Of a stretch of 64,000 nucleotides of DNA, positions 16,314 to 36,562 are shown in pieces (position 1 is the first letter of the stretch; every line of letters begins with the position of its first letter). The DNA is from an uncultured Gammaproteobacteria bacterium (lineage in GTDB: Bacteria > Patescibacteriota > Patescibacteriia > Patescibacteriales > GWE2-39-37). The translations under genes and the position numbers were made by a program. The stretch covers positions 213,496 to 277,495 of the forward strand of contig CAYUCS010000001.1 of the NCBI GenBank assembly GCA_964443495.1, read 5' to 3'. A model generated the notes under the pieces. The model had not been told where the DNA came from, did not search any database, and saw only the letters and a list, made by a program, of their open reading frames with translations.

Positions 16314-16523
16314 CCTTCACCTCCGTGTGGGGTATTTCTGTCTTTGTGACAGAAGGGTTGATGAAATGAGCGACAATAAAAAAATCCTTTTGAGGATTTA
16401 TTTAATATTAGCAAAAAAATATTTATTGTCAAGGAGTTTGCGTAAAGAGGGTGATTAGTTTTGACAAAAAACGGTAATTGTGATATATTATTATGTTTTT
16501 TAAGTAACATTAGGCAAGTAGTG

Positions 16524-19391
16524 ATGAAGACATGGCAAAGCAAAGCGATCGTCATTTTAGCGGCTTCGTTTTTCGCCGTTAGCGTCGTTGTCCAGGCAAT
16601 TCTCAGCTTGGATAGTTTTTTCGCGTCCGAAAAAGAAGCTGGACCGGCGAAGGCGATCGATGCCGGGCAGGTGCCGATCATCTCGGTCGATTTTTCCAAG
16701 AATTCGGGCACGATCAGCGACAAGATTTTCGGCGAGGGCGTCGAGATGCCTTTTCTCGACAACATCTGGGATAAGAATGCCGGGTTCGATCAGAACACCC
16801 TGAACGTGGCCAAAGCTATCAAGTTCACCAATCTCCGTTTCGGCGGCGCCACTTGCCGCACCTACAACTGGAAGAACGAGGCTATGACCGGCTACCGCCC
16901 GTATCAGAAAGTCTATTGGGAAGGTATCGATCAGTGGTACCAATACGCCAAGCTGCTCGACTTGCCGGCGCCGACCATCTGCACCAACATCCATCTGACG
17001 CCGCAGGATTCTGCCGATTGGGTCAGGTACGCCAACATCGAGAAGAAATACGGCATTACCAACTGGGAGATGGGCAATGAGGAATATCTGGCCTACACCA
17101 GCGTCGATGATTACTTGCGCGATGCCAGGGCGCACTGCGCGGCGATGAAGGCGGTCGATGCCAGTGTCAGATGCGGCGTTGTCGGTGACGAGAAGGGGGT
17201 CAGTTGGACCAATGCCCAACTGCTGTCTAAGCTCAAGCCAGGGGAGTTCGATTTTTTCGTCGCTCACTTCTACGAGCCGGAGAGTTATTACAATTACTAT
17301 TCGCTGTACATGAACAGCGACAAATACGAAAAGAAGGTCAACTTGAAGCAGGGCAAGTACCGCTTCACTTTCTTCGCCATCGGCGACCAGGCGCCTGAAA
17401 ACTCCGACCCGGTGCCGACCATGCAGGTTTGCTTTGACAAGGATTGTTCCTGGACCGACGTTTCCAACACCGAGCGCGGCAAATGGGTCAAGTATTCGAC
17501 CAGGGAATATGAAGTGAAGGCCGGAGTCCACACCATCTCATTCAATCTGGCCGATGATTATTACGGTTGGACCAGCCGCCAGGACAAGAATATCTTTGCG
17601 GCCAACGTCACGTTGGTCAATAATTTTTCCGACGAAACCAAGCTTGATTTCGTCGATACCAAGGCCTGGACCTATTCTTTCCTTGCCTCCAACCTTTCGA
17701 CCGAGGATTCGATCAAGGGCATCAGGACCTTGATGGACAAGTACAAGGTCAGCATGCCGATCTTTATCACTGAATACGGCTGGAGCTACGGCGTCGAGGC
17801 GTATCCGAATTGGGGACAGCAATATGATTGGCGCTCGACTTTGTTCGACGTCTTGCATATCCAGTCGCTGATCAAAGAAGCCATCCCTCAGGCCAATATC
17901 TGGAAAGACCTTTCGACCGGCTATTGGAAATATTTTTCGGATGATATCAAGGGACAGAACTATTGGCCGATCTTTTCAGTCTTCAAGCTGCTTTCGGAAA
18001 AGACCGGAGACGTCTTGGTTGAAACCAAGATCGAGAACGTGCCGACGTATAACGCCCAGAAGTTCCAGACCGAAGCCCGAGAAAACATACCGTATTTATC
18101 GATAGTTTCCAGTAAGAATGGCACCAAGAACTATATCAATGTGGTCAACCGCAGCCAGGATAACGCAATCCTGGCCACGATCAGGACGAACATCGACTAT
18201 ACTTCGGTCAAAGTTTCCGAGGTCGCACCGTCATCGATGGAAGCCCATCCTTATCGCGATGACGGCTATAAAGAAAATATAACGACCCAGGACAAGACCT
18301 TGTCGGTGAGCGGAGATTTCAATTACAGTTTCAAGCCGTTCTCCGTGACGACTTTCGAATTCAATGTCACCGCCCCGCTGATTTCCGGCGGCTATCCGGC
18401 CAGCACCTTGCCCGCAACGACCGATCATGCGACTTTGCGGGTGAATACCGACAAACCAGCCAATTGCCGTTACAGCCTGAAGCCCAACGAAAGCTACGCT
18501 GCCATGGAGCAGCGTCCTTTCGTCACTGCCAACGGAGTCACGCATACCGTGACCGTGCCGGGGCTGAAGGCTGGAAAGTCATACGAATACTTCGTCAAGT
18601 GCCAGAATGGCGGCGGTGCTTCGAACCTTTCCGATTATCGCATCAGGTTCAGTGTCGCAGCCCCGGCTAATCCGACAACCTGCGTCCTGACCCCTGACGG
18701 CGGCAATCATTTCCGTGGTCGCAACGTCACGATAAATTGCGGACGTGATGTCGTCGAGGCCAGCTACCAATGGGACCAGGGGCCGGTGACGGAGTTCAGG
18801 AACAGCACTTCTACTTGGTTCGCTGCCGACAAGAAAAGAGTCTTGAATATAAAATATCGTTACAAGTCTGGCGCAAACGGCAAGCCGGCCGAGAAGACTG
18901 TGAAATTTTCCAAGACTTTCGACGCTAACCAGCGTTTCTGCAACATCTCGCCTGGCGGCGGCATCTTCAACCGCGACACCAATGTCTTTATCGAGTGCGG
19001 CAAGAATGTCAAACGGAGCACTTGGCGCTGGGGCAACGGCCAGGCTTACAATTTCAGTCCGTCAACCGACGTGAAATTCGTGGCTGACTTCTCTAAGAGC
19101 CTGAATATCTCCTTCGCTTACGATCAGGTCAACGGCAAAGGCGTCGAAGAGAAGGTAGTCAGGTTTTCTAAGAATTTCCAAGTGCCGCCATGCGTCGATT
19201 CAGATAACGGCATCAACCAATTCCAACGAGGCACGCTGCTCTACACCGGCCAGACGATCAAGCGTAATTATGCCGATGCTTGCAACGGCAGCTCGTTGAC
19301 CGAATACTACTGCGACAAGGGACTGATGGCTTATGCCATAATCAGGTGTGCCAATGGTTGCGCCAACGGCGCGTGCATTTCGAGAAGGTAG
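16524..19391 (+). CDS. Secreted clan GH-A-like glycoside hydrolase with a duplicated C-terminal beta-domain and a terminal Cys-rich module
   Basis: A signal peptide follows ATG 16524 (MKTWQSKAIVILAASFFAVSVVVQA). LRFGGATCRTYNWKNE, NWEMGNEEY (acid/base NE) and FITEYGWS (nucleophile E) fit a (beta/alpha)8 retaining hydrolase. There are two ~95-aa repeats (C.L/ISPxGG..F....V.I.CG..V....) and a terminal CVDSDNG...EYYC...C.NGC.NGAC module. Confidence 0.65.
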   Translation: MKTWQSKAIVILAASFFAVSVVVQAILSLDSFFASEKEAGPAKAIDAGQVPIISVDFSKNSGTISDKIFGEGVEMPFLDNIWDKNAGFDQNTLNVAKAIKFTNLRFGGATCRTYNWKNEAMTGYRPYQKVYWEGIDQWYQYAKLLDLPAPTICTNIHLTPQDSADWVRYANIEKKYGITNWEMGNEEYLAYTSVDDYLRDARAHCAAMKAVDASVRCGVVGDEKGVSWTNAQLLSKLKPGEFDFFVAHFYEPESYYNYYSLYMNSDKYEKKVNLKQGKYRFTFFAIGDQAPENSDPVPTMQVCFDKDCSWTDVSNTERGKWVKYSTREYEVKAGVHTISFNLADDYYGWTSRQDKNIFAANVTLVNNFSDETKLDFVDTKAWTYSFLASNLSTEDSIKGIRTLMDKYKVSMPIFITEYGWSYGVEAYPNWGQQYDWRSTLFDVLHIQSLIKEAIPQANIWKDLSTGYWKYFSDDIKGQNYWPIFSVFKLLSEKTGDVLVETKIENVPTYNAQKFQTEARENIPYLSIVSSKNGTKNYINVVNRSQDNAILATIRTNIDYTSVKVSEVAPSSMEAHPYRDDGYKENITTQDKTLSVSGDFNYSFKPFSVTTFEFNVTAPLISGGYPASTLPATTDHATLRVNTDKPANCRYSLKPNESYAAMEQRPFVTANGVTHTVTVPGLKAGKSYEYFVKCQNGGGASNLSDYRIRFSVAAPANPTTCVLTPDGGNHFRGRNVTINCGRDVVEASYQWDQGPVTEFRNSTSTWFAADKKRVLNIKYRYKSGANGKPAEKTVKFSKTFDANQRFCNISPGGGIFNRDTNVFIECGKNVKRSTWRWGNGQAYNFSPSTDVKFVADFSKSLNISFAYDQVNGKGVEEKVVRFSKNFQVPPCVDSDNGINQFQRGTLLYTGQTIKRNYADACNGSSLTEYYCDKGLMAYAIIRCANGCANGACISRR

Positions 19392-20071: not shown

Positions 20072-21454
20072 TTAGCTGGCCATAATGGCCGATTTGATCC
20101 TTTCACCTCCTTCGGGCGTGAAGATTTCGAGGTTCATCATGGCGAAAAGCTCAGCCGGCATGTTGTTGATTATGACCATGTCGAGCGTGCCCTCCTCGCA
20201 ATGCTTGATGATGTGCTCTTCCAGTTGCCGGATGCGCTCCTCTTCGGTACCTTCCGTGATTTCGATCATGGCCGACCCCCAGCTTGAATCAGTCTTGGTC
20301 GGACTCATGCCGAGTGCTTCGCGAGCCCTCGAGGCCTTCTTGGCGGGGCAGGACGGCAGCTTGGCGCACTCAAAGCAGCCAGTAATATCCAATCCGCGGT
20401 ATTCGCCGTCATCTGCATTCATGGGGCTAAAAATGCTGGGGAGCGGACCGTCGAATCCAGGGAAATCGTCACCATCTTCGAAGCCAGGTATGATGTCACT
20501 GAGGCCGGGCTGATCTTCGAGCTCTCCGAAAACGTTGTCGAAGGCTCTTTCCAGGATATTGTGAAGCGCCACGGTGCTGATCAGGCGCCCGATCAGGTCG
20601 CCGATGGAACCGTCCCTCGAACCGCTGTCGGGATTTGCCAGCTTTTCAAGCTTGCTCCTGAGTCCGTGGCCCAGGTCGATTCCGGCTTCGGATATTCTCC
20701 GAAGAATTTGGCTGGCGACATGGCTGCCGCCGAGCTTGTGGGTGACGATGGCATCAGCAAATCTCATTGCCTGGATGCTGCTGGTCAGCTGGTTTTCATC
20801 AAGCCAGGCTGAGAGGAAGCGGTGGTGGGAGGGGATGAGCTGGAAATGCTCGGCGAAGTGGACCGCACCGTGAGGGTCGCCTTTGAGCTTGGCCACGGCC
20901 AGGCCGATGACCAGGTCCTCGGCAGCGCGCGAATCGTCCTGGTTGCGGGTGAAGTTCTCGATCCTCTCGGCTAGCAAGCCGATGCTGCCAATGCTGAGCG
21001 AAGGCCCGGTTTCGGCGGCCAGTTTCCGGCCATAGGTCGTGAGCAGGGCGCCGGTCGAGTAGCATTCGTTGGCTTCTTCGAAGTCCAGAGTGTCGTAATT
21101 GACTCCCTTGTTGAGGTTGTTGAGCAGCGTGATGATGTTCCCGAGGTCGCCGGTGCGTGCGCCATAAGCTTTGAACAAAGCGTTGCGGATGGCTGGCAGT
21201 TTGATGCCGTTCGACAGCGAGATGATGTCGTCGATGCCGGTAGCCAGTAGCAGGGCCTTGTTCACCAAGGCGTCGGTCAGCTTGCGCTGCCACAGCCGGG
21301 TGATTGACGGATGGAGCTCTCGGCTCTCGCTTAACAAGCCCTCAATCGCGCTCGGCGCGAATTTGAGGTCGCTGAAATGCGAATTGCTGATAGCTCTCTC
21401 GAAATTCCTGGTCTCCAGGTACAGCATGACGTACAACTTCAGTTTTTTTAGCAT
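20072..21454 (-). CDS. Hypothetical protein (461 aa from the SD-supported ATG), no recognisable family
   Basis: The track ORF extends to 21589, but AAAGGAGGAAGG sits immediately upstream of ATG 21454 (MLKKLKLYV...). No TM helix or signal peptide. Confidence 0.6.
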   Translation of the reverse strand: MLKKLKLYVMLYLETRNFERAISNSHFSDLKFAPSAIEGLLSESRELHPSITRLWQRKLTDALVNKALLLATGIDDIISLSNGIKLPAIRNALFKAYGARTGDLGNIITLLNNLNKGVNYDTLDFEEANECYSTGALLTTYGRKLAAETGPSLSIGSIGLLAERIENFTRNQDDSRAAEDLVIGLAVAKLKGDPHGAVHFAEHFQLIPSHHRFLSAWLDENQLTSSIQAMRFADAIVTHKLGGSHVASQILRRISEAGIDLGHGLRSKLEKLANPDSGSRDGSIGDLIGRLISTVALHNILERAFDNVFGELEDQPGLSDIIPGFEDGDDFPGFDGPLPSIFSPMNADDGEYRGLDITGCFECAKLPSCPAKKASRAREALGMSPTKTDSSWGSAMIEITEGTEEERIRQLEEHIIKHCEEGTLDMVIINNMPAELFAMMNLEIFTPEGGERIKSAIMAS

Positions 21455-21718
21455 GTCCTTCCTCCTTTGGTCTGGTTCTTGCGGTTGGGGTTGATGTCCA
21501 AGATGCAAAGCGTCAGGGTCTCGTTTGATGCGACTGCAGATTTTAAAAAAGCAATTATATAGATTGACATATTTTATACAATTTGTCAACGTTAATGGCT
21601 AGCATTCGCCAATATCGTAATCATTTTATCTAATATTAAGTAAAAAATTGGCCGTAACAAAGTCTGGCAGGGCTGGTAATATATAGGCAATGTCTAATTC
21701 TTAATTAGGGCAATTAAT

Positions 21719-23239
21719 ATGGAATATAAGTATTTTATCCGTAAAATTTACCAGCCTTCGCCCGAAGTGGTCGTCCTGGAGCTGGCCGACCAGCTTGGCC
21801 GGCCGGTTTTCGGGTACAAGCCGGGGCAATATGTCATGATCGCCTACGCCAATGAAAGGGGGTTGCTTGAACGCAAGCACGCCTTTTCATTGGCTAGTTC
21901 GCCAACCGAAACCGACCACATCAAGCTGGGCATCAAGATCGGCGGCAAATTTACGCAGGGTCTTTTGAAGCTGGAGCCAGGCAGCCAGGTTGTCGTCAAC
22001 GGGCCGTTCGGCAGCTTCGTTTTTGACGAGACCAAGCATCGGGATGCGGTTTTCTTGGCCGGCGGCATCGGCATCACGCCTTTTTACAGCGCCCTTAAGT
22101 ACGCGACTGAAAGGAATCTCGATAACAAGATGGCGCTTCTGTATAGCAATAAGACTTTGGATGGGACTTTATTTTACCGTGAAATCAAAGCGCTCGAGGA
22201 CAAGAATGAGAATTTGCGCGCGCTGTTTTCCGTGACTGACAAGAACGTCTTGCCGGTTGGCGCCAATGTGGTCAACAAGCGCCTCGATGGCGCAGTTATC
22301 AATGGATTCGTCGGCGGCCATGAGGGCAAGACCTTCTTTATCTGCGGTCCAGCCCCGTTCATGAAGGCGATGAGGTCTGATTTGCTCGGCCTGGGCGTCA
22401 AGCCGTCACAGATCGAAATGGAAGGTTTTTCTATGATGGCCGGCAGCGGCGTATTGGCCGGGACTAAGAACGTGGCTTATGCCATGGGTTTTTCCGGCGC
22501 TCTGATGCTGAGCTCGTTTTATCTGATCGCCAATCCTGGCAGCGCTCCGGCTGCGGGTAATCTAGAAAAGCTCGGCCTGGTCGATTCATTGCTGAACGAT
22601 TATTCGTCTATCGAGGCGCAGGCCGCCGGACCGCTGGCACTGTCGGAAGAATCAGGTTTTCCGGTCGCAGCCGTTTTGAATGCCGGCACAGATTCCAGCA
22701 CGGCGCCGGTTACGGAAACCGTAGCCTTGGCGTTAGCTCAGGGCAGTCAAAAAGCGGAAGCAGCAAGCGCCACCGCCCCAGTCTCGAATCAACGGCCCGC
22801 GACTGGCAAAGCGGCAGTCACCGCCGCTCCGGCACCGGTAACTCACGCATCTCCTGTCAAGGAGACGGCCGCCGCCGCGAAACCGACTGCTGCTGCGACG
22901 GCTGCAAGCAAAACTTCGACAACCGCGGCCCCGGCTCCGGTCACTTCCGCTTCAGCTCCGGCGCACACATCACCGACACCAGTGGCAACCGCTCCGACTA
23001 CCCAGGCGGCAGCCTCGGCCCCGGCTCCGGTCACTTCCGCTTCGGCTCCCGCTTCGTCCGTCACCACAGCTACCCCGAGCCAGCCAGCTGCCACAACGCC
23101 AAGCACGGCTCCGGCTCCGTCAACCTCGGCTTCGACTCCGGCTTCTGGAACAGGAACGTCCGTGTCGTCGGCCGCACCGACGACCGCCGCCCCTGCCACC
23201 GTCTCAAGGAATCGGCACGATGACGATGATGACGATTAA
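21719..23239 (+). CDS. FNR-like FAD/NAD(P)H oxidoreductase domain fused to a TM helix and a ~230-aa Ala/Pro/Thr/Ser-rich tail ending in D6
   Basis: FAD site KHAFSLAS (RxYS-type), GKFT, NAD(P) site FLAGGIGITPF, FICGPAPFM. TM segment VAYAMGFSGALMLSSFYLIA. Low-complexity tail ends ...SRNRHDDDDDD. Confidence 0.8.
   Translation: MEYKYFIRKIYQPSPEVVVLELADQLGRPVFGYKPGQYVMIAYANERGLLERKHAFSLASSPTETDHIKLGIKIGGKFTQGLLKLEPGSQVVVNGPFGSFVFDETKHRDAVFLAGGIGITPFYSALKYATERNLDNKMALLYSNKTLDGTLFYREIKALEDKNENLRALFSVTDKNVLPVGANVVNKRLDGAVINGFVGGHEGKTFFICGPAPFMKAMRSDLLGLGVKPSQIEMEGFSMMAGSGVLAGTKNVAYAMGFSGALMLSSFYLIANPGSAPAAGNLEKLGLVDSLLNDYSSIEAQAAGPLALSEESGFPVAAVLNAGTDSSTAPVTETVALALAQGSQKAEAASATAPVSNQRPATGKAAVTAAPAPVTHASPVKETAAAAKPTAAATAASKTSTTAAPAPVTSASAPAHTSPTPVATAPTTQAAASAPAPVTSASAPASSVTTATPSQPAATTPSTAPAPSTSASTPASGTGTSVSSAAPTTAAPATVSRNRHDDDDDD
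22927..23049 (+). repeat. Direct repeat (~33 bp, 90-bp period) inside the low-complexity tail
   Basis: ggccccggctccggtcacttccgcttc(a/g)gctcc occurs at 22927 and 23017 and encodes APAPVTSASAP twice. Confidence 0.7.
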
Positions 23240-23632
23240 ATGAATAAGCGTATGAAAAAAATATTCGATACACTGTTATTAGCCGTATTGATTGCCGTTT
23301 TCGGCGTCGGCGGCTATAAGCTAGGAGCCAAGAAAGAACGGGTCGAGGTAATTGCCGCCGCCCCTCTAGCAGCTTCGCCAAAGCAGGATGGCTTGCCCCA
23401 GGCTGAGCCTGCAAATCGGCAACCTGCCGCCTCAAGCACTCCAGCCGCTTCTCAAGAGGCGCCTTTCAAGCCTGCTCCTGCCGTTGCACCGAAGCCGGTC
23501 GCACAGGTGTTGGGCAATAAAGTGACTGCTAAGCCAGCATCTCCAAAGCCGGCGCCGGCCGCCCAACCATCAACCCCTGTCGTCGTGCCGCAACCTGCCG
23601 CTGAGCCGCAGCCAGCAACCAAGGTTTCCTGA
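23240..23632 (+). CDS. Membrane-anchored Pro/Ala-rich protein
   Basis: The ATG directly abuts the preceding TAA (TAAATG). N-terminal TM IFDTLLLAVLIAVFGVGGY followed by a PA-rich tail. Confidence 0.55.
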   Translation: MNKRMKKIFDTLLLAVLIAVFGVGGYKLGAKKERVEVIAAAPLAASPKQDGLPQAEPANRQPAASSTPAASQEAPFKPAPAVAPKPVAQVLGNKVTAKPASPKPAPAAQPSTPVVVPQPAAEPQPATKVS

Positions 23633-23692
23633 TGCGGTTCTTAATCAATTCCTAATTTTTCCGGGCGATAATCTGATAATCATGATATACGT

Positions 23693-24625
23693 ATGATTTG
23701 GAAAAAATTCAACGCTTTAGGAACGGAAATAGTCATCAGCGCTTCGTTGGAACCGGGGAGGGAGGACGTGCTTGATGCCGCAGAAAAGGAAATCAGCGAT
23801 TTCGAGAGGAAATTCAGCCGCTTCCTGGTCGGTAACGAGCTTTATAAGCTGAATAGCGCGCCTGGCGGCGAATTCGAGGCCAGTCCCGCCCTGGCCGACC
23901 TGTTGCGTGAAGCCAAGAAGCTGAACGCGGAAACAGGCGGGCTCTTCGACCCGACGATCATCAGCAGCTTGGAAGATGTCGGATACGATCGCAGTTTTTC
24001 CGAGGGCGCAGCTGATGAGAGTCCGATGCCGATCGACCTTGCCAGGATCAGCCAGCGTTTCGCAGAGCGCTCGAAGATGTCAGAATTGGCAATCGACGGT
24101 AATGTAATCAGTAAGCCTGCCGGATTCAGGGTCGATTTGGGCGGATTGGGAAAGGGCTATATCGTTGATCAGCTTGCCAATGGACTCTTTGCCGATGTCG
24201 AGGATTTCTGGATTTCGGCCGGAGGCGACTTGGTCATCAAGGGTAACGCCGAAGGCGGCAAGGGTTGGAAAGTCGGAGTGCAGAATCCCAACAAGCCGGA
24301 CAAGGAAATCTTTTCAGTTGTAACTAAGGGCGAAAAGGTTGGCATCGCCACCTCCGGTATTTTCAAGCGTCGAGGTGAGCGAGGCGGAGTCCAGTGGCAT
24401 CATCTGATCGATCCCCGGACCGGCTTGCCGGCCGACAATAACATCCAGGCAGTAACGGCCATTTCCAGCAGCGCGGCCAGGGCAGATGTCTTTGCTAAGA
24501 CGGTCCTGATCTTGGGAGAGGAGGAAGGGTTGCGTTTCATAGATAGCTTCCAAGATTCGGCCTGTATCATATTTTTCAAGGACCGGGGATTGAAATTCTC
24601 CGAAAGAGCATTTAATTATTTCTGA
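23693..24625 (+). CDS. apbE: FAD:protein FMN transferase (ApbE family), no obvious signal peptide
   Basis: GGLGKGYIVD, ISAGGDL, IATSG and HHLIDPRTGLPA motifs. Confidence 0.85.
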   Translation: MIWKKFNALGTEIVISASLEPGREDVLDAAEKEISDFERKFSRFLVGNELYKLNSAPGGEFEASPALADLLREAKKLNAETGGLFDPTIISSLEDVGYDRSFSEGAADESPMPIDLARISQRFAERSKMSELAIDGNVISKPAGFRVDLGGLGKGYIVDQLANGLFADVEDFWISAGGDLVIKGNAEGGKGWKVGVQNPNKPDKEIFSVVTKGEKVGIATSGIFKRRGERGGVQWHHLIDPRTGLPADNNIQAVTAISSSAARADVFAKTVLILGEEEGLRFIDSFQDSACIIFFKDRGLKFSERAFNYF

Positions 24626-24626
24626 T

Positions 24627-25364
24627 ATGTACAAGATATTCGCAACGATATTCTTCTTGATGCTAGTCGGTTCAGCCGGCTTCTTGTTCGGCTCCAAGAA
24701 CAGGGAAGTGGAGTATGTTATTCGCGGGGGCGCGGGAGCAGCCACCTCGACGGTCGTCATCAGTCAGACGAATGCGGGCGAGAGCCGCTTCTTCGGCCTG
24801 GTGCCGGCCGACAAGGTTTCCAGTATCCCGTGGTATGTTTCCCGATCGGCTGCTATCGTGGCCTACTTAGTGATGTTCCTAGTCGTCCTGTTGGGCACAG
24901 GCATGACCACCGGTTTCGCCTATCGTTTGCTTGACCCGGTAGTCGCTTGGAGTACGCATCAGTATCTGGCCATTTCCTTGGCCGTGACTTTGGCCATACA
25001 CATCATTTCCATCTATTTCGACGAATTCATCAACTTCACGGTCCGCGATTTGCTGGTGCCGTTCATATCGGACTACAAGACGGCCTACCTGTCTATGGGT
25101 ATCATCAGTTTCTATCTCCTGGTCGCAACCATATTGCTTTCGATATTCTTGAGGCTAAAGTCGCCGAAATTCTGGCGGGCTACCCACTTCCTGGTCTATC
25201 CGCTATTCGCGCTTTCATTGGCTCACGGCTTGTTTACGGGGAGCGATTCCGGCACCATCGCGATGCGCATGATTTACTGGGTGACCGGAGCCATCTTTGC
25301 CGCATTGCTGGTTTATCGCTTCGCCTTGTATCCGCTCAAGGCAAAAAACATGAGGCGCGCTTGA
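24627..25364 (+). CDS. Ferric-reductase-like transmembrane (bis-heme) domain protein
   Basis: Six predicted TM segments. There are two His pairs: H(x13)H in STHQYLAISLAVTLAIH and H(x12)H in THFLVYPLFALSLAH. The start lies 1 nt after the apbE stop. Confidence 0.75.
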   Translation: MYKIFATIFFLMLVGSAGFLFGSKNREVEYVIRGGAGAATSTVVISQTNAGESRFFGLVPADKVSSIPWYVSRSAAIVAYLVMFLVVLLGTGMTTGFAYRLLDPVVAWSTHQYLAISLAVTLAIHIISIYFDEFINFTVRDLLVPFISDYKTAYLSMGIISFYLLVATILLSIFLRLKSPKFWRATHFLVYPLFALSLAHGLFTGSDSGTIAMRMIYWVTGAIFAALLVYRFALYPLKAKNMRRA

Positions 25365-25526
25365 CATTTTGGTCAAAAAGTGCTAATTTATAAGACAATT
25401 TAGTCTTTCTTTTGGGAGGCTATTTTTGTTTTTTTGACAATCGAATGATCAATATCCTATAGGAAATCAACGCCAACCGAGACAGTTTTACCGACTGCTC
25501 ACAACCGCGAAAAGGAGGAAGCACCC

Positions 25527-28720: not shown

Positions 28721-31700
28721 TTAATAGTGAGCTACGGTCGCGGTATCGACATTGTTTATCTTCTTGCCGTGGTATTGGCGAAGTTCAATCAATGATCTTA
28801 TGTGCTGTTTCTTGCCGTTCTTGATCACGTAGATCCTATTGTCCGGTCCGCGGAAGAGGTCGCCGTTCCGGAGCTTGGCGAATTTGTGCTCATCATAGCT
28901 TGAGAGCGTGGCGGCATCGACACGAATGATGGGCTTGCCTCGATACAGGCTTAGTTCAGCCATGTTAACGATGCGTTCTTTTTCGCCGAACATTATGACG
29001 TAGATCCTGTTATCCGTGCCCCTGATGAGCGTTCCGTCGGGGTAAATCTTGATGCCAAGTACGCGTCGCCTGTCTTCGGCCTTCTGCCGCTCGTCTTCGG
29101 TTTTCTTGTCATCTTCGATTTTTTTGACGGGCTTGATTATGCTGGGCAGGCCCGGGGAGCGGAAGATACCGAACAGCGTCAGGTGGTTGATGCTGAAGGT
29201 AAAAGATTTGGCGCTGGAATTGAAGAGGGCTCCAGGCACGATCAGCCATTCAAGCCGGCCTTCATCGAAAGCGTAAACGCTCAAGTTGACGACGTCGCTC
29301 GGCAGTTCAACGCCGCTGACCGTGATGGTAATCGCTTTGGCGAAGTTGGTCACTGATTGTCCGGCTTCGTTGACGGCTGTCAAATTGAAGAGCGAATGCT
29401 CGATCGGGCGCAGCTTGTCGCTTTTTTCCGTCTCGGTGAGGTCGGTCAATTGCCCTCGTGTCACCCGGAAAGTGGTTTTGCTAGTAACTGCGCCCGCAGG
29501 GATGTTGACTACGACCTTGAGGCCGTCCTCAAGCGTCTGTTCGAGAATGCCGTTTTCTGTCGGCTGGATTGTCAGAGGTGCATTTGAGGTCGTTACGGTA
29601 GTCGGCAACGGGAAGCCTCCGCCTCCACCGCCACCTCCGCTCGGAGGAGGTGTCGGAACAGCCCCAACATTGATGGTAACGTTACGAAGCACGCCGGACG
29701 ACTGGCCGTCGCTTGCTTGGATGTCGAATGAGAATCGCCCAACCGCAGCCGGAGTCCAGCTTAACATGCCGGTCGAAGACCCGATTGATAATCCTGCCGG
29801 AGCGCCGATTAGGGAATAGGTTATCGGATCGCCGTTCGGGTCAGTTGCTAAGACTTGATAGGACATCGCTTGTCCTGCGGTGGCAGGAAGCTCAGGAATG
29901 GCTGTGATTTTAGGATGGAGATTTACCGTGTTGCCGGTCGTGAATGACCATGAGTATGGAGCTGAAAGCGGCGTTCCGCCGGCATCCTTCACTCCGGTTG
30001 TCACGAAAACGGTGTATGATGCATTGCGATTCATGTTCATGTGCGGCACCAGCATGAATTGTCCGCCGCCACGCGACATGTACATGACGTTGACAGTATT
30101 GCCTAATGCATCCCGGAGATAATAGGTGTTTGCGTTCACTGATGCCACATCCATCTTCTTGTTAAAAATTAGATGGATCATGCGGTCGATCGGGAAATCC
30201 GTGCCATTGGCTAGCGGATTGGTAAATTCGATCGTTGTGGTGGCAATCGTGCCCGTAGGTGCCGTGGAGAAACTCCAAGAATACGGCTGAGCCATTGCGA
30301 CTCCCGCCAAGTTTTTTATTCCGGTAGTCAGATTGACAGTGTAGGTTGTTGACGCTTGCAGCGGGACGGCCGGAACGAAGGTGGCAATCCTGTTGCAGCA
30401 ACCCGTCACCAAAGCGGCAGGGACGGGGTTGCCTTGATTGTCGGTCAAGGTGATATTCTGTGAGTTGAGCGTGGCAGTGTCGATATTATATTTGGTAAAG
30501 ACGATATAGATCGACCTGTCCAGATTTTGGCCGGTCATCAGGTTGGCAGGGTTGACGAAATCCACTAATGGAGCGGCATTGTCTATTGGGTTAGCCGGGG
30601 AAGCTATGGTGACGATAGTGTTGCCAGTCGTCGTGCCACTAGTCGCAACAACAGTCGTCGTGCCGACGGCCTGAGGAGTCATTAAGCCTGACGCGCTGAT
30701 CGTGGCCGCCGCCTGATTCGAGGAAGACCAGGTGAAGGCCGGCTGCGGGTTCATAGCTGCGCCGAATTGGTCAAATGCTGTCGCGCTGAACTGGGTGCTT
30801 GTACCCAAAGTCGCCGTTGAAGTGGCTGGGGTTACTGAAATCGAAGTTAAGACTTGGGGGATGATTGCCGCGGTAACGAGAGTGCTGCCGCTTACAGCGC
30901 CGGATGTAGCGCTGATGGTGGTCGTGCCGACGGCCATCGACATGACCAGGCCGTTAGCATCAACCATGGCCGCTGCAGGGTTCGTTGAGTTCCAGGTAAA
31001 TGCGGGCTGTGGCAGTAGGGTGTTGCCGTACTGGTCGAGGGCGTTAGCGCTGAATTGCAAGCTTGCGCCCACGATAATCGTGGATGTGGCCGGAGTGACG
31101 GAAATCGATGTCAGTACCGGTGGTGCCAAGGTCACGCCCAGTGAGGCAGTGCCTGATATGGCTCCGCTTAAAGCCGTTATCGAGGTCGTACCCACGGAGA
31201 TGCCGGTAGCTAGCCCTGAAATCGGGTCAATCGTGACTGATGCTTGGTTTGACGACGACCAGGCAAAGGCAGGTTGCGGATTCATGGCCGCACCGAATTG
31301 ATCAAGGGCCTGGGCGGCGAATTGCTGGGTCGTTCCCGTAAGTATTGACGTAGTGCTTGGCGTCACATTGATCGCGGTGAGGGCTTGAGCGACGGCTGTT
31401 AATAGCGCGGAGCCGCTGATTGGCCCGCTTGAAGCGGTGATAGTGCTGGTTCCAGCTGACAGGCCGGTCGCTAAGCCGGCTGCGGTAACTGTCGCTATCT
31501 GCTGGTTAGAGGAAGTCCAAGTAAAGGCCGGTTGCGGGTTCATCTGGTTGCCGATCTGATCAAAGGCGGTAGCAGTAAATTGCTGGATGCCTCCGGCTGC
31601 CGAAATTGTCGGGTTGGCCGGCGAAACCGTTATGGTCGTAACGACCGGCACTAAAGGGTTGACCGTGACGGTCGTCGTGCCTGATATCGGTCCGCTTACG

Positions 31701-32374
31701 GCAGAGATGGTCGAGGTGCCGGCAGCCATGGCCATGAACATGCCTGAGGCGTCAATGGTGCCGGCCATAGCGTTGCTTGTTTGCCAATTGACCGGAACAT
31801 TCATCGGGTTTCCCAGTTGGTCGCGCGGTGTCGCGGTGAACATCAGCATGCCGCCTTCGGTTACCGAAGGGTTAGCTGGCGCGACGCCTATGGTCGTCAG
31901 CACAGGAACGATTACCGGAATGATATTGAGATTGATCATGACTATGACTTCGCCGCCGTATGCGGTCGTTGTCGCGGTGCTGTCCGCGCCTTGTGTCGCG
32001 GTCACCTCGAGTTGGTCGCCGATCGCCACGCATAGCGAAGGGTCTAAGTTAGCCAGGTCAACCTGATATAATCCCCCCTGAGCTGTGACCGTCGAAAACG
32101 GCGCGAAGCCTTGGGTTATGTCCCTCAGGGTTACCGTGGCCCCATCCGTCGGCACGCCATTGACGCTGACGGTGCCTGCTACCGATCCTGGCAAGCAGCC
32201 TTGGGCAGCAAAGGCGCTTTTCTCCGGGTTCATTATGGGAGCTAACGATATCGTGGCCATCATCGCCATGATGGTGGCTCCGATTATAAACCTGTTCTTT
32301 GCTAGTCTTTTCATAGGTTTGTATTTAAGAATTAATTTTAAGCCTTGTCCTGCTACAAGCCAGCGACCTTTCAT
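28721..32374 (-). CDS. Large secreted multi-Ig surface protein (CarboxypepD_reg-like, 5x Big_2, 2x SbsA-type Ig, cadherin-like Ig, Gly8 linker, 2 C-terminal wall-binding-type repeats)
   Basis: Signal peptide MKRLAKNRFIIGATIMAMMATISLAPI. There are five ~85-aa repeats (ITVSPANPTI..G..QQFTATAFDQ.GN.MNPQPAFTWSSSN...ATV...GL.T....GT..ITA). It also has YSLIGAPAGLSIGSSTGMLSWTP, PPPSGGGGGGGGFP, and two copies of G.L.RG.DNRIYVI..G.K..I....EL..Y.GK.I. The start is either ATG 32374 (abutting the upstream TAA) or ATG 32314. Confidence 0.8.
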   Translation of the reverse strand: MKGRWLVAGQGLKLILKYKPMKRLAKNRFIIGATIMAMMATISLAPIMNPEKSAFAAQGCLPGSVAGTVSVNGVPTDGATVTLRDITQGFAPFSTVTAQGGLYQVDLANLDPSLCVAIGDQLEVTATQGADSTATTTAYGGEVIVMINLNIIPVIVPVLTTIGVAPANPSVTEGGMLMFTATPRDQLGNPMNVPVNWQTSNAMAGTIDASGMFMAMAAGTSTISAVSGPISGTTTVTVNPLVPVVTTITVSPANPTISAAGGIQQFTATAFDQIGNQMNPQPAFTWTSSNQQIATVTAAGLATGLSAGTSTITASSGPISGSALLTAVAQALTAINVTPSTTSILTGTTQQFAAQALDQFGAAMNPQPAFAWSSSNQASVTIDPISGLATGISVGTTSITALSGAISGTASLGVTLAPPVLTSISVTPATSTIIVGASLQFSANALDQYGNTLLPQPAFTWNSTNPAAAMVDANGLVMSMAVGTTTISATSGAVSGSTLVTAAIIPQVLTSISVTPATSTATLGTSTQFSATAFDQFGAAMNPQPAFTWSSSNQAAATISASGLMTPQAVGTTTVVATSGTTTGNTIVTIASPANPIDNAAPLVDFVNPANLMTGQNLDRSIYIVFTKYNIDTATLNSQNITLTDNQGNPVPAALVTGCCNRIATFVPAVPLQASTTYTVNLTTGIKNLAGVAMAQPYSWSFSTAPTGTIATTTIEFTNPLANGTDFPIDRMIHLIFNKKMDVASVNANTYYLRDALGNTVNVMYMSRGGGQFMLVPHMNMNRNASYTVFVTTGVKDAGGTPLSAPYSWSFTTGNTVNLHPKITAIPELPATAGQAMSYQVLATDPNGDPITYSLIGAPAGLSIGSSTGMLSWTPAAVGRFSFDIQASDGQSSGVLRNVTINVGAVPTPPPSGGGGGGGGFPLPTTVTTSNAPLTIQPTENGILEQTLEDGLKVVVNIPAGAVTSKTTFRVTRGQLTDLTETEKSDKLRPIEHSLFNLTAVNEAGQSVTNFAKAITITVSGVELPSDVVNLSVYAFDEGRLEWLIVPGALFNSSAKSFTFSINHLTLFGIFRSPGLPSIIKPVKKIEDDKKTEDERQKAEDRRRVLGIKIYPDGTLIRGTDNRIYVIMFGEKERIVNMAELSLYRGKPIIRVDAATLSSYDEHKFAKLRNGDLFRGPDNRIYVIKNGKKQHIRSLIELRQYHGKKINNVDTATVAHY
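30602..31900 (-). repeat. Five tandem Big_2-type coding repeats (~255-270 bp each)
   Basis: Protein residues ~159-591 of the 28721..32374 ORF. Repeats 2-5 are highly similar to one another, and antisense ORFs in the track mirror the periodicity. Confidence 0.75.
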
Positions 32375-35300
32375 TTATAGCTTGTGGACGAACACCCCAT
32401 CTCCCGGATTGATAATGAAATTATTAAGCGGGAAGTTTATGATATGGCTTATCCATTTTTGCAGCAGGCTGTCAAACTTGGCCACCAGGTCGGCGCCAGC
32501 GATTGTCAGGCCGAATGTTTCGGCAGTGGTAGTGCCCGCTCCTGACCAACCCAAGAGATTCCAGCCGGGCGAAGTGACGGGCGTAGTCTGGGGAATCGGC
32601 GTGCCCGTTATCGTGACGTTTGTGGTCGTTGCCATATGGACGAAGAATCCTGAATTGTCGAGATTGAAATTGTTCAGCGGGAAGCCGACGATATGGCTAT
32701 TGTATTGCTGATTGGCGCTCGACCATTTTGCCACGACATCGGCTCCTGTCAACGACCCGAAGCTTTCGGCCGAATAGGTCAGAGGCAAGCCGCCTTGATC
32801 TACGGGCTGTACTGGCAAAGAAATCAGATTCCAGCCGGTGTTCAGCGAGATGCTAACGGAACTCGTTCCTCCGCCTTGGGCGAAGGTCGGAGCTGATGAG
32901 TTGCCGCCCGATGCATTGTAAGCGGTGACGATGTAGCTATAGCTGGTTCCCGGAGCGGCAGTGCCGTCGGTGAAGCTCGTCTGATTGGCTAGGGCGGTGC
33001 CGATTTGGACGTAGGTGCCGGCCTGTCCGTTCGTGACGACGGCACGTTGTATCCGGTAGCCGATTTCATTAGCGGAGTTGCCGAGGGTGGCGGGATTGCC
33101 AGCCGGGGTGCCGTCAGTCCAAGTGATGACTCCGCTTTGTTCGGATGCGGTCGGAGCCTGCGGGAAGGCGGTGGACACGTTGAATTTTATCGGTCTCATC
33201 ATGTCCATCTCTTCGTGGCTTAAGATATGGCAATGCCACATGTATTCCCAGCCGAAGTTGGTCATCTGATTGGTCACCGTAATCGGGTTGCCTAGGGAAT
33301 CGACGTTCTTGAAACCGGCAGTCGAGCCGATCGGCATGGTCGGGTCGAGCGGCCGTACGCTTTCCGGGACGCCGAACGGCATTTTGGGGGCAGTCGGCCT
33401 CATGGCTACGATGATGTCTTCCAAAGGGTTCATCCTTACGGTTTCCTTCCAGCCAAGCTCGTTCGGTTCCGGCGGCTTGACCACCCCAGCCCAATCGACT
33501 CGGTTGACGACCTGGACGTTGAAGTGGTGGAAGTGGATCGGGTGCGTGTCCACGCCGTTATGGGTTATTTTCCATATCTGGGTGCCGTCGCCGATGCTGC
33601 CGATAGGCGTAATCGAGGTGTTAGTATCGTTGATTATTTCGGTAGTCGGATCCTGGTAATCGTAGAAGATAGTCGTTTGATTCATACCGTTGGTAAAAGG
33701 CACTTCTACGCCCAGGAAGCCGCTCATGCGTCCGTAAATGCTTTCAAACTCTTCCGCAATCGCCTTCGGCTTGAACTGGATGGTTACCGGTGCGGCGGCG
33801 CCTAAGGGGGTAAAAGTCAGCGAGGTGTCCTGGATGCGAGCGTAAGCCCGGTTGTTGCTAGGGAAATTGCCGTTGTATGCGGCGTTATAAGGGGCCTGCG
33901 GAACGATAATCGGATCTTGCGTGGCTGCGAAAGCGGCGGGCAAAGCCGTGTTTAACGGTGCTGGATTATAGGCTGTCGGAGTGCCGGTGGCAACCCTTAT
34001 CTGCATGATTGTCCTGATGTTCGGCCCGTAGCCCGGCAGGGTGCCCTTGACGCCGCCGGTCGAGGTCAGGTCCGGAGCGCCGGTGTAATAATCGAAGCGC
34101 GGGTCTCCTGCCGGCAGGGCTGCCGGCGCGTCATTGTAGAGGATCAGCGTCTTGCCGGCGAAGGCGGAAAAGTCGATAATCACATCCGCTCGTTCCGCTG
34201 GACCGATAAAAAGGTTGTGCTCCTTGATGTTCCCGACGGTCATGCTTTTGGGATCCATATCGTAGCCCATGGGGATGTTATTGTGAGTTACCGGTGCGGG
34301 CAGAAAGCCGCCTTCGGTGCCGATCTGAATCATGGAGGGCCCTCTGGTGTTCGGATCGGGAATGCCCCCGTCGCGGTTATCCGGAGTCGGATACCCGGCC
34401 GGCCAAGCTCCGCCGGTGACGAACGGCACCATTTTGACTTCCGTATCGGTTCTTCCGTCCGGAGCGGTGACTCCCGGGTCGGCCACGTATAGCTGCAAGT
34501 TCCAGAATCGGTCGTTGGCCGCGTTGAGAACGCGGAATCTATAAGCTTTGGGTTGGACGCCAAGGAAAGGGTAGGCTGTGCCGTTTATCATCGGGGTATC
34601 GTTGAAATTTTCCATGCCCATAGATATGTTCGGCACCCCGGGAACCTTGGTGCCATCGGGGTAGTTTATCGGACCGTTAGCGACCGGCCAGGGGGGCCAG
34701 AACCACGGACCGTAATCCCAGCGTCCGAGCGGGTTGACGCCTCCGATGTCGTTAGGATTCTGGTTTGGCATATAGACATGGGGAATCCATAAATCTCCGG
34801 TGTGCGGGATGCCTGGCGTCGAGCCCCAGTTCCAGGTCGGATCAGTGGCCATGATCGTGGTCGCATCCACGAAGGTCTTGTCCTGGATGATTAAAGGAAT
34901 CTGTTCGGCTGGGATTACGCCGGTATTGATCAAGTTTTGCTCGGTCGGGTCGCTCAGAAGGTAGCCAGCCGCTTCGCCGGAATAGACATTCAATCTGGTA
35001 ATGCCGAAGGCGTGGTCATGATAGAACATCAGTCGCGCGCTCTGTTGGTTGGTGTAGTAGAATGTCTGCGATCCTGGGCCAGGGTCAGCCATATCCGGGA
35101 CATTGGAAACGCTGACACCTTTAGGATACTGGGTGTTTTCTCCTGCCGGCGTGATCCATTGGTGGGCGGTGCCGTCACTGATCCAGGGGGTAAAGCCTCC
35201 ATGCAGATGTATGGTCGCTCTGTTTTCAGTGTAGTCTTCTTTCATGCCTGGCATGCCTGGCATATCGAGAGGACCCATGCCGGCTCCCATGACTGATTTG

Positions 35301-36562
35301 TCAACCGGGATAAAAAGCTTGCCTCCAGCACCCGTGGGAAGCTGGTTTGTGAATTTAATCCTAACAGGCCGGTCCTTTGTGGCGATTATCGTCGGGCCAA
35401 GGTAGTGTATGGGCGCAGGCGCGATGGTGTTATTGCCCAAAGCGTCAGTACCGTTATTGGTCTGCACGTATCCGCGCAAAGTGGTTGCCGGCAGGTCAGT
35501 GTGCAATTTTTCGGTATATTGCCGTAGAGAGATTTCGTAATAATCCGACCCCGGATAGGTTGTCGTGTCGGGCGTGGCGACCGAGAGGTATTGCCCAAGA
35601 TTGTTGGCTTTAGCAGCTCCTAAGCCAGCAAGCGAGTCCACGAATTTGCGGATGCCGCCTGCCAGATAGCCGTTTCCTCCGCTAGCCAAAGCCAGCGCGG
35701 TGACTGATCCGCTCACGACCGAGACTGCCGTCGCGCCTGTCCCGTCACCGGTTATGGTGATAGTCGGGGCCGAAGTGTAGCCAGCCCCAGGGTTGGTTAC
35801 GGTAATGCCGGAAATGGTACCGCCTGGCCCGATAGTGGTCGTGGCCACGGCTCCGATGCCCCCGCCGCCGGCAATGTCGACGGTGGCCGCGGTGTAGCCC
35901 GATCCGGCGTTAGTGACAATGATGCCGGAAACGATGTCCATGACGACGGTGGCTGTCGCCGAAGCGCCGGTACCATTGCCGACAAACGTTACCACGGGCG
36001 CCGACGTATATCCGGAACCTCCGTTAGTCAGGGTCAGGCCGGTTATCACGCCGTTGGTGGTCGAAGCGATCGCAGCAGCTCCTGTGCCCCCGCCGCCACT
36101 CAGGCTCACGAGCGGCGCCGAATCATTTGGCTGGGGGCTGAATGCCCAATTCGGCTCAGGGCCGAAGTAGTTCGGGGTGCCGCCCGGATTGGGAATATTT
36201 GCCAGCAGCGCAGAAGGGGCATTTGCTGCCTTGGCAACTCCCAGCTTGACAGACGGAGCCGGTTTTTTTGATGAAGCCTTGATTGGTCCTTGATCTTGCT
36301 TTTTTTTGCGCTCCGCAGCCGCGCGTTTGGCCGCGGCTTCACGCTGGGCTGGAGTGATGCGCTTATTCCTTTTCTGCTTTATGGCTGCAGCGTCGTGGCT
36401 TTTGATCCGTAGGTTAGTCGTGCTAGCGGAACCGGCCGGCACAACTAACAAGCTTGACACCATGGCCATGCCAAGAAAGATCGTCATGATCGTCCTGAAC
36501 GATTTGCGGACCAGGGCCTTGCTGCCTGCTGCGGAGGCGAAAGTCTTGGTTTGTGATTTCAT
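32375..36562 (-). CDS. Giant (1,395 aa) secreted multicopper oxidase with N-terminal Gly-rich repeats and C-terminal Fn3-like plus duplicated beta-domains
   Basis: All four MCO copper motifs are present: [36 protein letters not shown]-terminal signal-anchor [17 protein letters not shown]. There are four ~36-aa repeats (..ITVTN.G.GYTSAP.VT..G.GTGA.A...V) and two C-terminal repeats (GWNL(I/L)....AE(S/T)FG...GAD(V/L)VAK......Q.. SHI(V/I).FPLNNF....G.FVH). Confidence 0.85.

Follow-up and report, generated by a model that had tools for sequence, protein, structure and literature searches.

The stretch of DNA analysed here (hereafter the window) comprises 64,000 nucleotides of contig CAYUCS010000001.1 (assembly GCA_964443495.1, positions 213,496 to 277,495 of the forward strand) from an uncultured bacterium placed by GTDB in the Patescibacteriota, and it contains four consecutive genes, here termed g1 to g4. 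They encode a dehydrogenase of the ferredoxin-NADP reductase (FNR) type followed by one transmembrane (TM) helix and a long tail (g1), a small TM-anchored Pro/Ala-rich protein (g2), an FMN transferase of the ApbE family (g3) and a six-TM protein with a ferric-reductase domain (FRD; g4). We read g1-g4 as one conserved operon that would specify a transmembrane NAD(P)H oxidoreductase of the NOX type, divided among separate proteins, along with a flavinylation module that serves it, and we put the probability of this reading, taken jointly with the electron path and the tail flavinylation proposed below, at about one half.

A preliminary description of this DNA, made from its letters and open reading frames (ORFs), had spoken of four tightly packed genes on the same strand. 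The common strand and two of the three junctions bear this out, as g1 and g2 meet in TAAATG with a gap of 0 nt and g4 starts 1 nt past the stop codon of g3 (TGA-T-ATG), but g2 and g3 are separated by a spacer of 60 nt. The gene upstream of the cluster lies on the opposite strand, and the next gene downstream, encoding IMP dehydrogenase (IMPDH; 25527), has no relation to the cluster and does not accompany it in two of the related loci (L002 and L004). A hairpin followed by a run of T likely marks the end of the operon. The features are collected in Table 1.

Table 1. Features of the g1-g4 cluster, in positions of the window
Feature	Position	Strand	Remarks
g1, FNR-type dehydrogenase + TM + tail	21719-23239	+	506 aa
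g1 FNR-type FAD/NAD(P)H dehydrogenase module	21719-22438	+	residues 1-240; Pfam, motifs
g1 TM helix VAYAMGFSGALMLSSFYLIANPG	22472-22540	+	residues ~252-274
g1 disordered A/T/S/P-rich tail	22541-23239	+	231 residues; predicted extracytoplasmic
g1 tail PVTHAS	22835-22852	+	PxPxTx[AV]S motif
g1 tail PVTSAS	22937-22954	+	PxPxTx[AV]S motif
g1 tail PVTSAS	23027-23044	+	PxPxTx[AV]S motif
g1 tail PSTSAS	23117-23134	+	PxPxTx[AV]S motif
g1 poly-Asp	23219-23236	+	tail end RNRH-DDDDDD
g2, small TM-anchored Pro/Ala-rich protein	23240-23632	+	130 aa
g2 single-pass TM	23261-23329	+	remainder Pro/Ala-rich
g2 TKVS	23618-23629	+	C-terminus ...PQPATKVS-COOH; putative minimal ApbE substrate
g3, ApbE	23693-24625	+	310 aa
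g4, six-TM ferric-reductase-domain protein	24627-25364	+	245 aa
g4 His111	24957-24959	+	assigned to inner heme
g4 His125	24999-25001	+	assigned to outer heme
g4 His187	25185-25187	+	assigned to inner heme
g4 His200	25224-25226	+	assigned to outer heme
Terminator-like hairpin	25401-25422	+	T-run to 25432; 37 nt past g4 stop; consensus scan alone

The membrane part of the system would be provided by g4. Its Pfam match to Ferric_reduct (PF01794) reaches 28.1 bits for a cut-off of 28, six TM helices are recognised by hydropathy, and an AlphaFold model built from a 9-sequence alignment (pLDDT 66, pTM 0.58) has helices at residues 2-24, 67-95, 104-131, 150-178, 180-205 and 211-244. Two bis-histidyl pairs, His111/125 and His187/200, show the spacing of 14 and 13 residues noticed at the outset, and all four residues are invariant in alignments of 9, 20 and 74 homologues. 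The expectation that both pairs reside in TM helices agrees with the model, where His111 and His125 fall in helix 104-131 (TM3) and His187 and His200 in helix 180-205 (TM5). Past His200, an outer loop of the pattern HG...G[ST]D[ST] is invariant as well. Positive charges are found in loop D (RLKSPKFWR) and at the C-terminus (KAKNMRR), whereas loops C and E are acidic or neutral, so that the positive-inside rule points to the NOX topology, with loop D and the C-terminus in the cytoplasm; loop A would lie outside, since in relatives of the type A described below it bears Ca-binding TSP3 repeats behind a cleavable-looking signal peptide. From this charge topology and by analogy with the established NOX structure, His111/His187 would hold the inner heme and His125/His200 the outer one. 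When the model was compared with the PDB by Foldseek, the best matches were SpNOX (at the top), STEAP2, STEAP1, DUOX1, the TM domain of CsNOX5, Dcytb and NOX5, the first nine all being of the FRD or cytochrome b561 type (probability 0.72-0.98, E 0.2-0.9). In sequence, similarity to the solved NOX structures was undetectable by profile search, the FRD alignment giving no match in the PDB at E <= 1. Altogether, sequence and model strongly support g4 as a predicted six-TM, two-heme-b FRD protein with NOX topology. The preliminary description had likened the system to NOX and to MsrQ-Fre alike; for the cytochrome the first likeness holds and the second does not, since its four invariant His residues make g4 a two-heme protein of the NOX/FRE type and set it apart from the MsrQ/STEAP type, in which one heme-ligand His is lost and a flavin replaces the inner heme (PMC12525009).

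The electron donor of g4 is most readily seen in g1, whose N-terminal module carries FAD_binding_6 (E 3.6e-8) and NAD_binding_1 (E 1.3e-11) in tandem at residues 14-219 and thereby belongs to the ferredoxin-NADP reductase-like superfamily. The motifs HAFSL (FAD) and GIGITP (NAD(P)H) match both of the NOX dehydrogenase motif filters of PMC5676040. The NCBIfam matches of the FNR module all score under their equivalog cut-offs, so that specific orthology cannot be assigned. No N-terminal signal peptide was found on g1. Its TM helix, with a Kyte-Doolittle maximum of 1.53 at residues 252-270 and a more hydrophobic counterpart at the same place in the orthologues, occupies the position of TM1 in natural fusions of the order FAD_binding_6-NAD_binding_1-TM-FRD (P0164, P0180, P0214). 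The opposite order, signal peptide-TSP3-FRD-FAD_binding_6-NAD_binding_1, is also found (P0142, P0148, P0152, P0165), and by the Rosetta-stone argument the fusion of g4 homologues to FNR in both orders points to g1 as the cognate donor of g4. Because these fusions join FNR to the N-terminus of TM1 or to the C-terminus of TM6, both on the cytoplasmic face, the FNR domain should be cytoplasmic, and if the helix is the counterpart of TM1 the tail behind it should lie outside the cell. There is thus strong support for g1 as an FAD/NAD(P)H dehydrogenase that is predicted to reside in the cytoplasm and to be anchored in the membrane through one TM helix, and the extracytoplasmic FNR domain that would have spoken against the original idea is not what is predicted.

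The third component, g3, matches the Pfam family ApbE (PF02424) at E 2.3e-56, its NCBIfam ApbE matches being sub-threshold. Alignment to the ApbE structures of V. cholerae (6nxi) and P. stutzeri (5mgy) and to Listeria FmnB (7esa) places the catalytic residues at Ser221 (in ATSG), His237 and Asp265, equivalent to V. cholerae Ser241, His257 and Asp285. In the ApbEs of the family the Ser is kept in 62/62, the His in 61/62 and an acidic residue in 62/62, many having Glu for Asp. One position departs from this pattern, since Lys269 (24497-24499) replaces the Thr of D-x-x-x-T, as does a Lys in 58 of 62 family ApbEs; the equivalent V. cholerae residue, Thr289, we take to be a Mg ligand. The absence of a recognisable signal peptide had been listed as an oddity, and it has proved to be a trait of the family. 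The g3 ORF opens at the first start codon past a stop, and its residue 10 aligns with position 2 of the Pfam profile, which leaves no room for a signal peptide. Judged by ORF limits, the start of the Pfam alignment and hydropathy, a signal peptide is absent from all of the more than 180 family members, whose N-terminal extensions are hydrophilic or missing; the longer N-termini of some ORFs were rejected as signal peptides, being either hydrophilic or the product of over-extended ORFs. Its absence throughout the family makes this a conserved trait and argues against a gene-calling error. The alignments thus strongly support g3 as a catalytically intact ApbE-family FMN transferase, predicted to lack an export signal.

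Conservation of the cluster was followed in four related loci (L001-L004), in 12 loci from GTDB species genomes and in 15 metagenome loci of the type found in the Candidate Phyla Radiation (CPR). The nearest relative is a Candidatus Falkowbacteria metagenome-assembled genome (80% identity), and about 20 distinct CPR loci, with differing flanking genes, show the order FNR-(small)-ApbE-FRD. The loci from GTDB genomes belong to Paceibacterota, Falkowbacteria, Saccharibacteria, Peregrinibacteria, Gracilibacteria and Peribacteria, so that the cluster, whose conservation the preliminary description had made a touchstone, is indeed widely kept. Homologues of g3 in the same clade, among them Azambacteria and Wolfebacteria, fall into at least 120 clusters when grouped at 90% identity; they are 38-100% identical to g3 and 298-338 aa long, save for three entries that are truncated to 222-265 aa. 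When the FRD alignment was used for an exhaustive profile search, 4189 cluster representatives were returned at E <=1e-3, 116 of them at <=1e-30. The ApbE gene always stands directly upstream of the FRD gene, often overlapping it.

Several architectures can be told apart around this constant pair. In the CPR, type B, to which the window belongs, has an FNR tail with 2-5 PxPxTx[AV]S repeats and the end R-x-R-x-poly-Asp, plus a separate small TM protein (g2) ending in P-x-T-[KN]-[VA]-S-COOH. In type A it is the FNR-TM-linker protein itself whose C-terminus reads P[RT]T[TR][VLT]S-COOH, the product of the following gene has a signal peptide, an acidic stretch (AEDDD...) and a motif resembling TSP3, and the FRD carries the TSP3 repeats mentioned above; the single TM helix of about 22 residues that separates the T-x-x-S end from the FNR module keeps this end from lying on the FNR side. 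Where the FNR is fused behind the FRD, a separate upstream peptide ends in ...PRTILS (L101) or ...PRTTVS (L100). A sister clade of 1740 matches, assigned to Anaerolineales, shows a Q-rich coiled-coil TM protein, a TM peptide, an ApbE that again lacks a signal peptide, and the FRD, with no FNR nearby; the TM peptide has 86-104 aa, ends in F[RSTK]T[GS]GS-COOH, and is probably oriented with its N-terminus inside, as this end is strongly positive. A T-x-x-S-COOH tether beside ApbE is therefore present in four architectures, namely CPR types B and A, the FRD-FNR fusions and Anaerolineales. In some Anaerolineales loci, L086 (636-923, 1551-1979) and L087 (258-536, 1143-1532), two TM peptides ending in T-G-G-S lie upstream of ApbE, and one peptide of this kind has a Gly/Ser-rich linker (GSGSGGGSGGGALTTGGS). 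The FRDs of Anaerolineales (L051 4839-5606 and about 50 other loci) also carry a conserved flavinylation-like stretch of the [GA]G[AS]S kind in loop A, just past TM1, as in SQSFGGASFAQK, LQTPAGSSVSQA and AVSGASFAQK. It is not present in the CPR members and could be a second candidate ApbE site within the cytochrome, with no tie to the CPR proteins found.

No version of the system is without acidic modules, whose place differs from one version to another. They occur as the poly-Asp end of g1 (conserved in type-B orthologues), as secreted AEDDD... proteins with the motif DSDGDG..HPGEDDFAY..NG.ADDLE, and as TSP3 repeats. Examples lie at L004 6267-7013, at L032 3-473, where a poly-D/E/H tail sits on the coiled-coil protein, and at L100 264-1034, where acidic, Q-rich coiled-coil and TSP3-like parts are joined in one protein. 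These modules are conserved accessories, perhaps with a role in binding cations or Fe(III).

In agreement with the preliminary description, the canonical flavinylation motif D..[ST]GA[ST] is absent from g1-g4, but a plausible degenerate counterpart exists on g2 and on the g1 tail. None of the four proteins contains FMN_bind (PF04205), DUF3570 or DUF2271, and g2 has no Pfam family at all. Within the window, g2 is the sole ORF of at least 100 aa with a T..S end. Its CPR counterparts end in PTTKVS, PTTNVS, PTTKAS or PQTNVS, and those of Anaerolineales in the F[RSTK]T[GS]GS pattern given above. All fetched loci together hold 1232 unique ORFs with a length of 80 aa or more, of which 54 have a T..S end; 52 of these 54 are the tether element beside ApbE, while we estimate that chance would yield about 0.4%, or some 5 ORFs. 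The tail of g1 holds four PxPxTx[AV]S motifs, about 30 residues apart, for 0.18 expected, and none of 5000 composition shuffles reached this number; the same non-random enrichment is seen in six orthologous tails. A recent tandem duplication was rejected as the origin of the repeats, as the DNA itself is not a tandem repeat. CPR loci without g2 (L005/L017, L021) possess internal PxPxTx[AV]S repeats, and the only FNR-TM-FRD fusion locus that lacks ApbE (L098) also lacks the T-x-x-S peptide.

The sequence T-x-[A/V/G]-S can be aligned with the ApbE motif [S/T]-G-A-[S/T], its last residue taking the position of the FMN acceptor. It has been established that a tag of seven residues is sufficient for flavinylation and works best at protein termini, that replacing its Asp by Ala has a minor effect and that G-to-A or A-to-V variants are still flavinylated to about 50%, and that Ser can serve as the acceptor (PMC12052999). 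Flavinylation is likewise known from FMN_red proteins, on extensions of the C-terminus that have no structure (PMC11334425). Given the conserved tether, the likeness of the motif and this literature on tags, the T-x-x-S ends of g2 and the repeats of the g1 tail are candidate ApbE substrates that would replace a folded FMN_bind protein, a proposal to which we give even odds.

Other sites were examined and set aside. FSLAS in g1 is the ordinary FNR FAD motif of the RxYS type, GGAGAATS in loop A of g4 is not conserved among type-B orthologues, and GTGMTTG at the inner end of g4 TM2 is replaced by Lys, Ala or Ile in other members. A covariation of Lys269 of g3 with the C-terminal acceptor was also dismissed, because four ApbEs that keep the Thr still stand beside peptides ending in ...TKTS or ...TQSSR. 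A canonical ApbE motif occurs just once in the window, as DTLSGAS at about residue 3386 of a 3450-aa DUF2341 protein (45929-56281, +); since by our estimate chance alone would give about 0.2 matches, it may mean nothing.

A working model can be drawn from these elements. NAD(P)H would reduce the FAD of g1, from which electrons would pass to the inner heme (His111/His187), the outer heme (His125/His200) and then FMN. ApbE (g3) would link this FMN through a phosphoester to the final Ser of the T-x-[A/V]-S motifs, that is, to the C-terminal ...TKVS-COOH of g2 and to the four PxPxTxAS repeats of the g1 tail, on segments that are predicted to be disordered, membrane-tethered and extracytoplasmic. 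The tethered flavins would hand electrons to an external acceptor such as Fe(III), O2 or a redox protein on the surface of a partner or host, and the outcome would be an NAD(P)H sink for organisms without quinones or respiratory chains. To our knowledge CPR bacteria generally lack quinones, which fits the recruitment of an FNR by the CPR operons and not by those of Anaerolineales. The core of this model, a disassembled NOX/MsrQ-Fre-like conduit that takes electrons from NAD(P)H to an acceptor or flavoprotein outside the cytoplasm, was already present in the preliminary description and gains support from the topology, the conservation and the fusions. As to acceptors, a 1395-aa multicopper-oxidase protein (Cu-oxidase_2, E 7e-8) is encoded at 32375-36562 (-), about 7 kb downstream of the cluster, and a giant multicopper-oxidase-like ORF adjoins ApbE-FRD in 4 Anaerolineales loci (e.g., L058 6081-10526). 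The former could be an extracellular electron acceptor, a weak link that is not conserved in L001.

Several points weigh against this model. The Pfam score of g4 stands right at its threshold, its structural model is of medium confidence and the Foldseek E-values are weak, and the TM helix of g1 is of moderate hydrophobicity in this window. The proposed acceptor motif is degenerate with respect to D-x-x-[S/T]-G-A-[S/T]: it has no Asp at -6, in the CPR it carries K, N, T, R or S at the Gly position, and its Ala is often Val. Tails so rich in Pro, Thr and Ser could also bear other modifications, for instance O-glycosylation. The Lys in place of Thr at V. cholerae position 289 may mean a different chemistry or metal dependence, if the Thr is the Mg ligand that we suppose. 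The terminal acceptor is represented by candidates only. Above all, the ApbE lacks a signal peptide while the candidate sites are predicted to be extracytoplasmic, so that the model requires either modification before export or an unrecognised export route, neither of which has a precedent among ApbEs.

Three resolutions of this topological paradox are possible: flavinylation before export, export of ApbE by an unrecognised route, or tails that are not substrates at all. The first, in which the peptides would be modified in the cytoplasm and exported afterwards, is speculative; it is proposed because ApbE has no signal peptide and its supposed substrates are unfolded peptides instead of FMN_bind domains, and it would explain both the peptide nature of the substrate and the location of the site at the extreme C-terminus. 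In its full form, a 'flavin on a string', cytoplasmic ApbE would flavinylate the C-terminal Ser of g2 and the repeats of the FNR tail before export, and the modified chains would then act as swinging arms that shuttle electrons from the outer heme across the cell wall to external or host-surface acceptors. We regard this elaborated version as doubtful, although it deserves consideration.

The third resolution amounts to a rival account with the same split NOX conduit, in which the T-x-x-S tails would act as linkers across the wall, as peptides for docking or sorting or as sites of glycosylation, ApbE would flavinylate a protein encoded elsewhere or none, and the outer heme would give its electrons directly to O2, forming superoxide, or to Fe(III) held on the acidic modules. 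The degeneracy of the tail motif speaks for it, as does SpNOX, which reduces O2 and cytochrome c directly from an exposed heme (PMC5676040), and the conserved poly-Asp ends, AEDDD... proteins and TSP3 repeats could bind cations. The single canonical D..SGAS in the giant DUF2341 protein elsewhere in the window would offer ApbE another target, but is within what chance allows. What this account leaves unexplained is the constant position of ApbE directly upstream of the FRD and the T-x-x-S-COOH tether that tracks ApbE over four architectures and two phyla; in Anaerolineales, moreover, the T-G-G-S end comes near to [S/T]GA[S/T]. For these reasons we consider it rather improbable.

Another rival account gives ApbE a purely cytoplasmic role. 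The enzyme would then flavinylate a cytoplasmic site of g1 or g4, or serve as an FAD pyrophosphatase or flavin chaperone loading the dehydrogenase, with flavins on the cytoplasmic side alone, comparable to the FMN that MsrQ binds in the cytosol or to the FAD in STEAP. That the whole family lacks a signal peptide would normally indicate a target in the cytosol, and the Lys that replaces the presumed Mg-ligand Thr at V. cholerae position 289 hints at altered chemistry. Cytosolic ApbEs do exist, one being known from Klebsiella (PMC12052999), and MsrQ and STEAP hold their flavin at the inner site (PMC12525009). Yet the four invariant His residues imply that in g4 this site holds heme and not flavin, and the Ser and Thr residues conserved family-wide in the FRD lie in TM helices or outer loops, with none in loops B and D or at the C-terminus. 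Moreover, Anaerolineales operons keep ApbE without an FNR to be loaded, and the T-x-x-S end of type A lies across one TM helix from the FNR. On balance this explanation appears quite unlikely. As for a fortuitous neighbourhood of four products that do not cooperate, the order is kept in about 20 CPR loci with unrelated flanks, the genes overlap or abut and Rosetta-stone fusions exist, so that it hardly needs to be entertained. The split conduit with tail flavinylation is the account that we retain.

Among known systems, the closest is the 'MsrQ-like' type (Ferric_reduct + ApbE + NAD-binding) already described by Meheust et al. 2021 (PMC8238504; see also Huang et al. 2024, PMC11334425). Both share a PF01794 six-TM two-heme protein beside apbE, a cytosolic NAD-binding FNR input and a proposed flow from NAD(P)H to a flavinylated extracytosolic acceptor, and the window contains, as that definition asks, a PF01794 gene within five genes of an ApbE/FMN-bind gene (PMC8238504). 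However, in MsrQ-like systems the FRD usually continues at its C-terminus into the NAD-binding domain, whereas here that domain belongs to a protein of its own, equipped with a TM helix and a tail, and the typical though not obligatory FMN_bind protein is absent, short T-x-x-S peptide motifs being all that is present. A signal peptide or lipobox on ApbE or its partners (ApbE, FMN_bind, DUF3570 or DUF2271 proteins) is part of their operational definition (PMC8238504), while none is present here. Finally, they are mainly actinobacterial and were reported to be strikingly under-represented in the CPR, where the present family is widespread.

SpNOX and the other NOX enzymes (Hajjar et al. 2017, PMC5676040; PMC11031084) share with g4 the six TM helices and the bis-His ligands in TM3/TM5 with 14/13 spacing, but in them the dehydrogenase follows the TM domain within one polypeptide, while g1 and g4 are separate with two genes between them; nor do they have ApbE or tethered tails, and their product is superoxide. 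In E. coli MsrQ-Fre (PMC12525009 and references therein), FRD membrane protein and FNR-like reductase are separate polypeptides, as here; MsrQ, however, has one heme, a non-covalent cytosolic FMN and one His ligand missing where g4 keeps four, Fre is soluble, the acceptor is periplasmic MsrP and there is no ApbE. The flavin-based extracellular electron transfer of Listeria (Ndh2, EetA/B, PplA, FmnB; PMC8238504, PMC9973259) resembles the proposed system in carrying electrons from NADH to ApbE-flavinylated extracytosolic sites and in being a redox sink in a monoderm. It proceeds via quinones and EetA/B and not through a heme FRD, its substrate PplA has folded FMN_bind domains, and FmnB is a secreted lipoprotein whose FAD comes from an ECF transporter. 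The extensions of FMN_red proteins and the engineered flavin-tags (PMC11334425; PMC12052999) likewise have a short motif in an unstructured terminus with Ser as a possible acceptor, but theirs is the canonical [S/T]GA[S/T], placed in a pre-existing flavin pocket or artificial, while the motif proposed here is degenerate, a candidate only, and located at the extreme C-terminus of a membrane tether. The system may thus be NOX-like in its working, yet has neither the fused dehydrogenase of NOX nor the signal-peptide and FMN_bind features of MsrQ-like systems, and is best filed as a variant of the MsrQ-like kind. Our search of the literature yielded no paper, apart from PMC8238504, in which ApbE is connected with Patescibacteria, and none on the present CPR system.

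Elsewhere around the cluster, a 505-aa ORF without Pfam match (20072-21589, -) is divergent from it; its position is taken by a 439-aa ORF in L001, and it is not found in L002 or L004. Two large predicted surface proteins, one of 1217 aa with five Big_2 and two Big_5 domains (28721-32374, -) and one of 955-976 aa with no Pfam match and a Cys-rich C-terminus (16461-19391, +), fit the usual cell-surface repertoire of the CPR.

In the current view, CPR/Patescibacteria live as epibionts by fermentation and have no respiratory chains. In these organisms, extracytosolic flavinylation has been reported to be nearly absent (PMC8238504), probably because clusters were filtered out when none of their ApbE, FMN-binding, DUF3570 or DUF2271 genes carried a signal peptide. 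With at least 120 ApbE clusters, the operon is common in the CPR and constitutes a concrete candidate for an electron route from NAD(P)H to the outside that would serve redox balance. For the evolution of NOX, a family that displays its modules split, as FRD-FNR and as FNR-FRD should be useful in tracing the origin of these enzymes. If the tails are flavinylated, natural ApbE substrates would extend to minimal C-terminal peptide tags, and the place where flavinylation occurs would become a question. And if the flavins do travel out on such strings, neither an FAD exporter nor a folded FMN_bind domain would be needed, and many quinone-less CPR/Patescibacteria would have in this system their principal NAD(P)H sink, with a perhaps quinol-fed counterpart in Anaerolineales.

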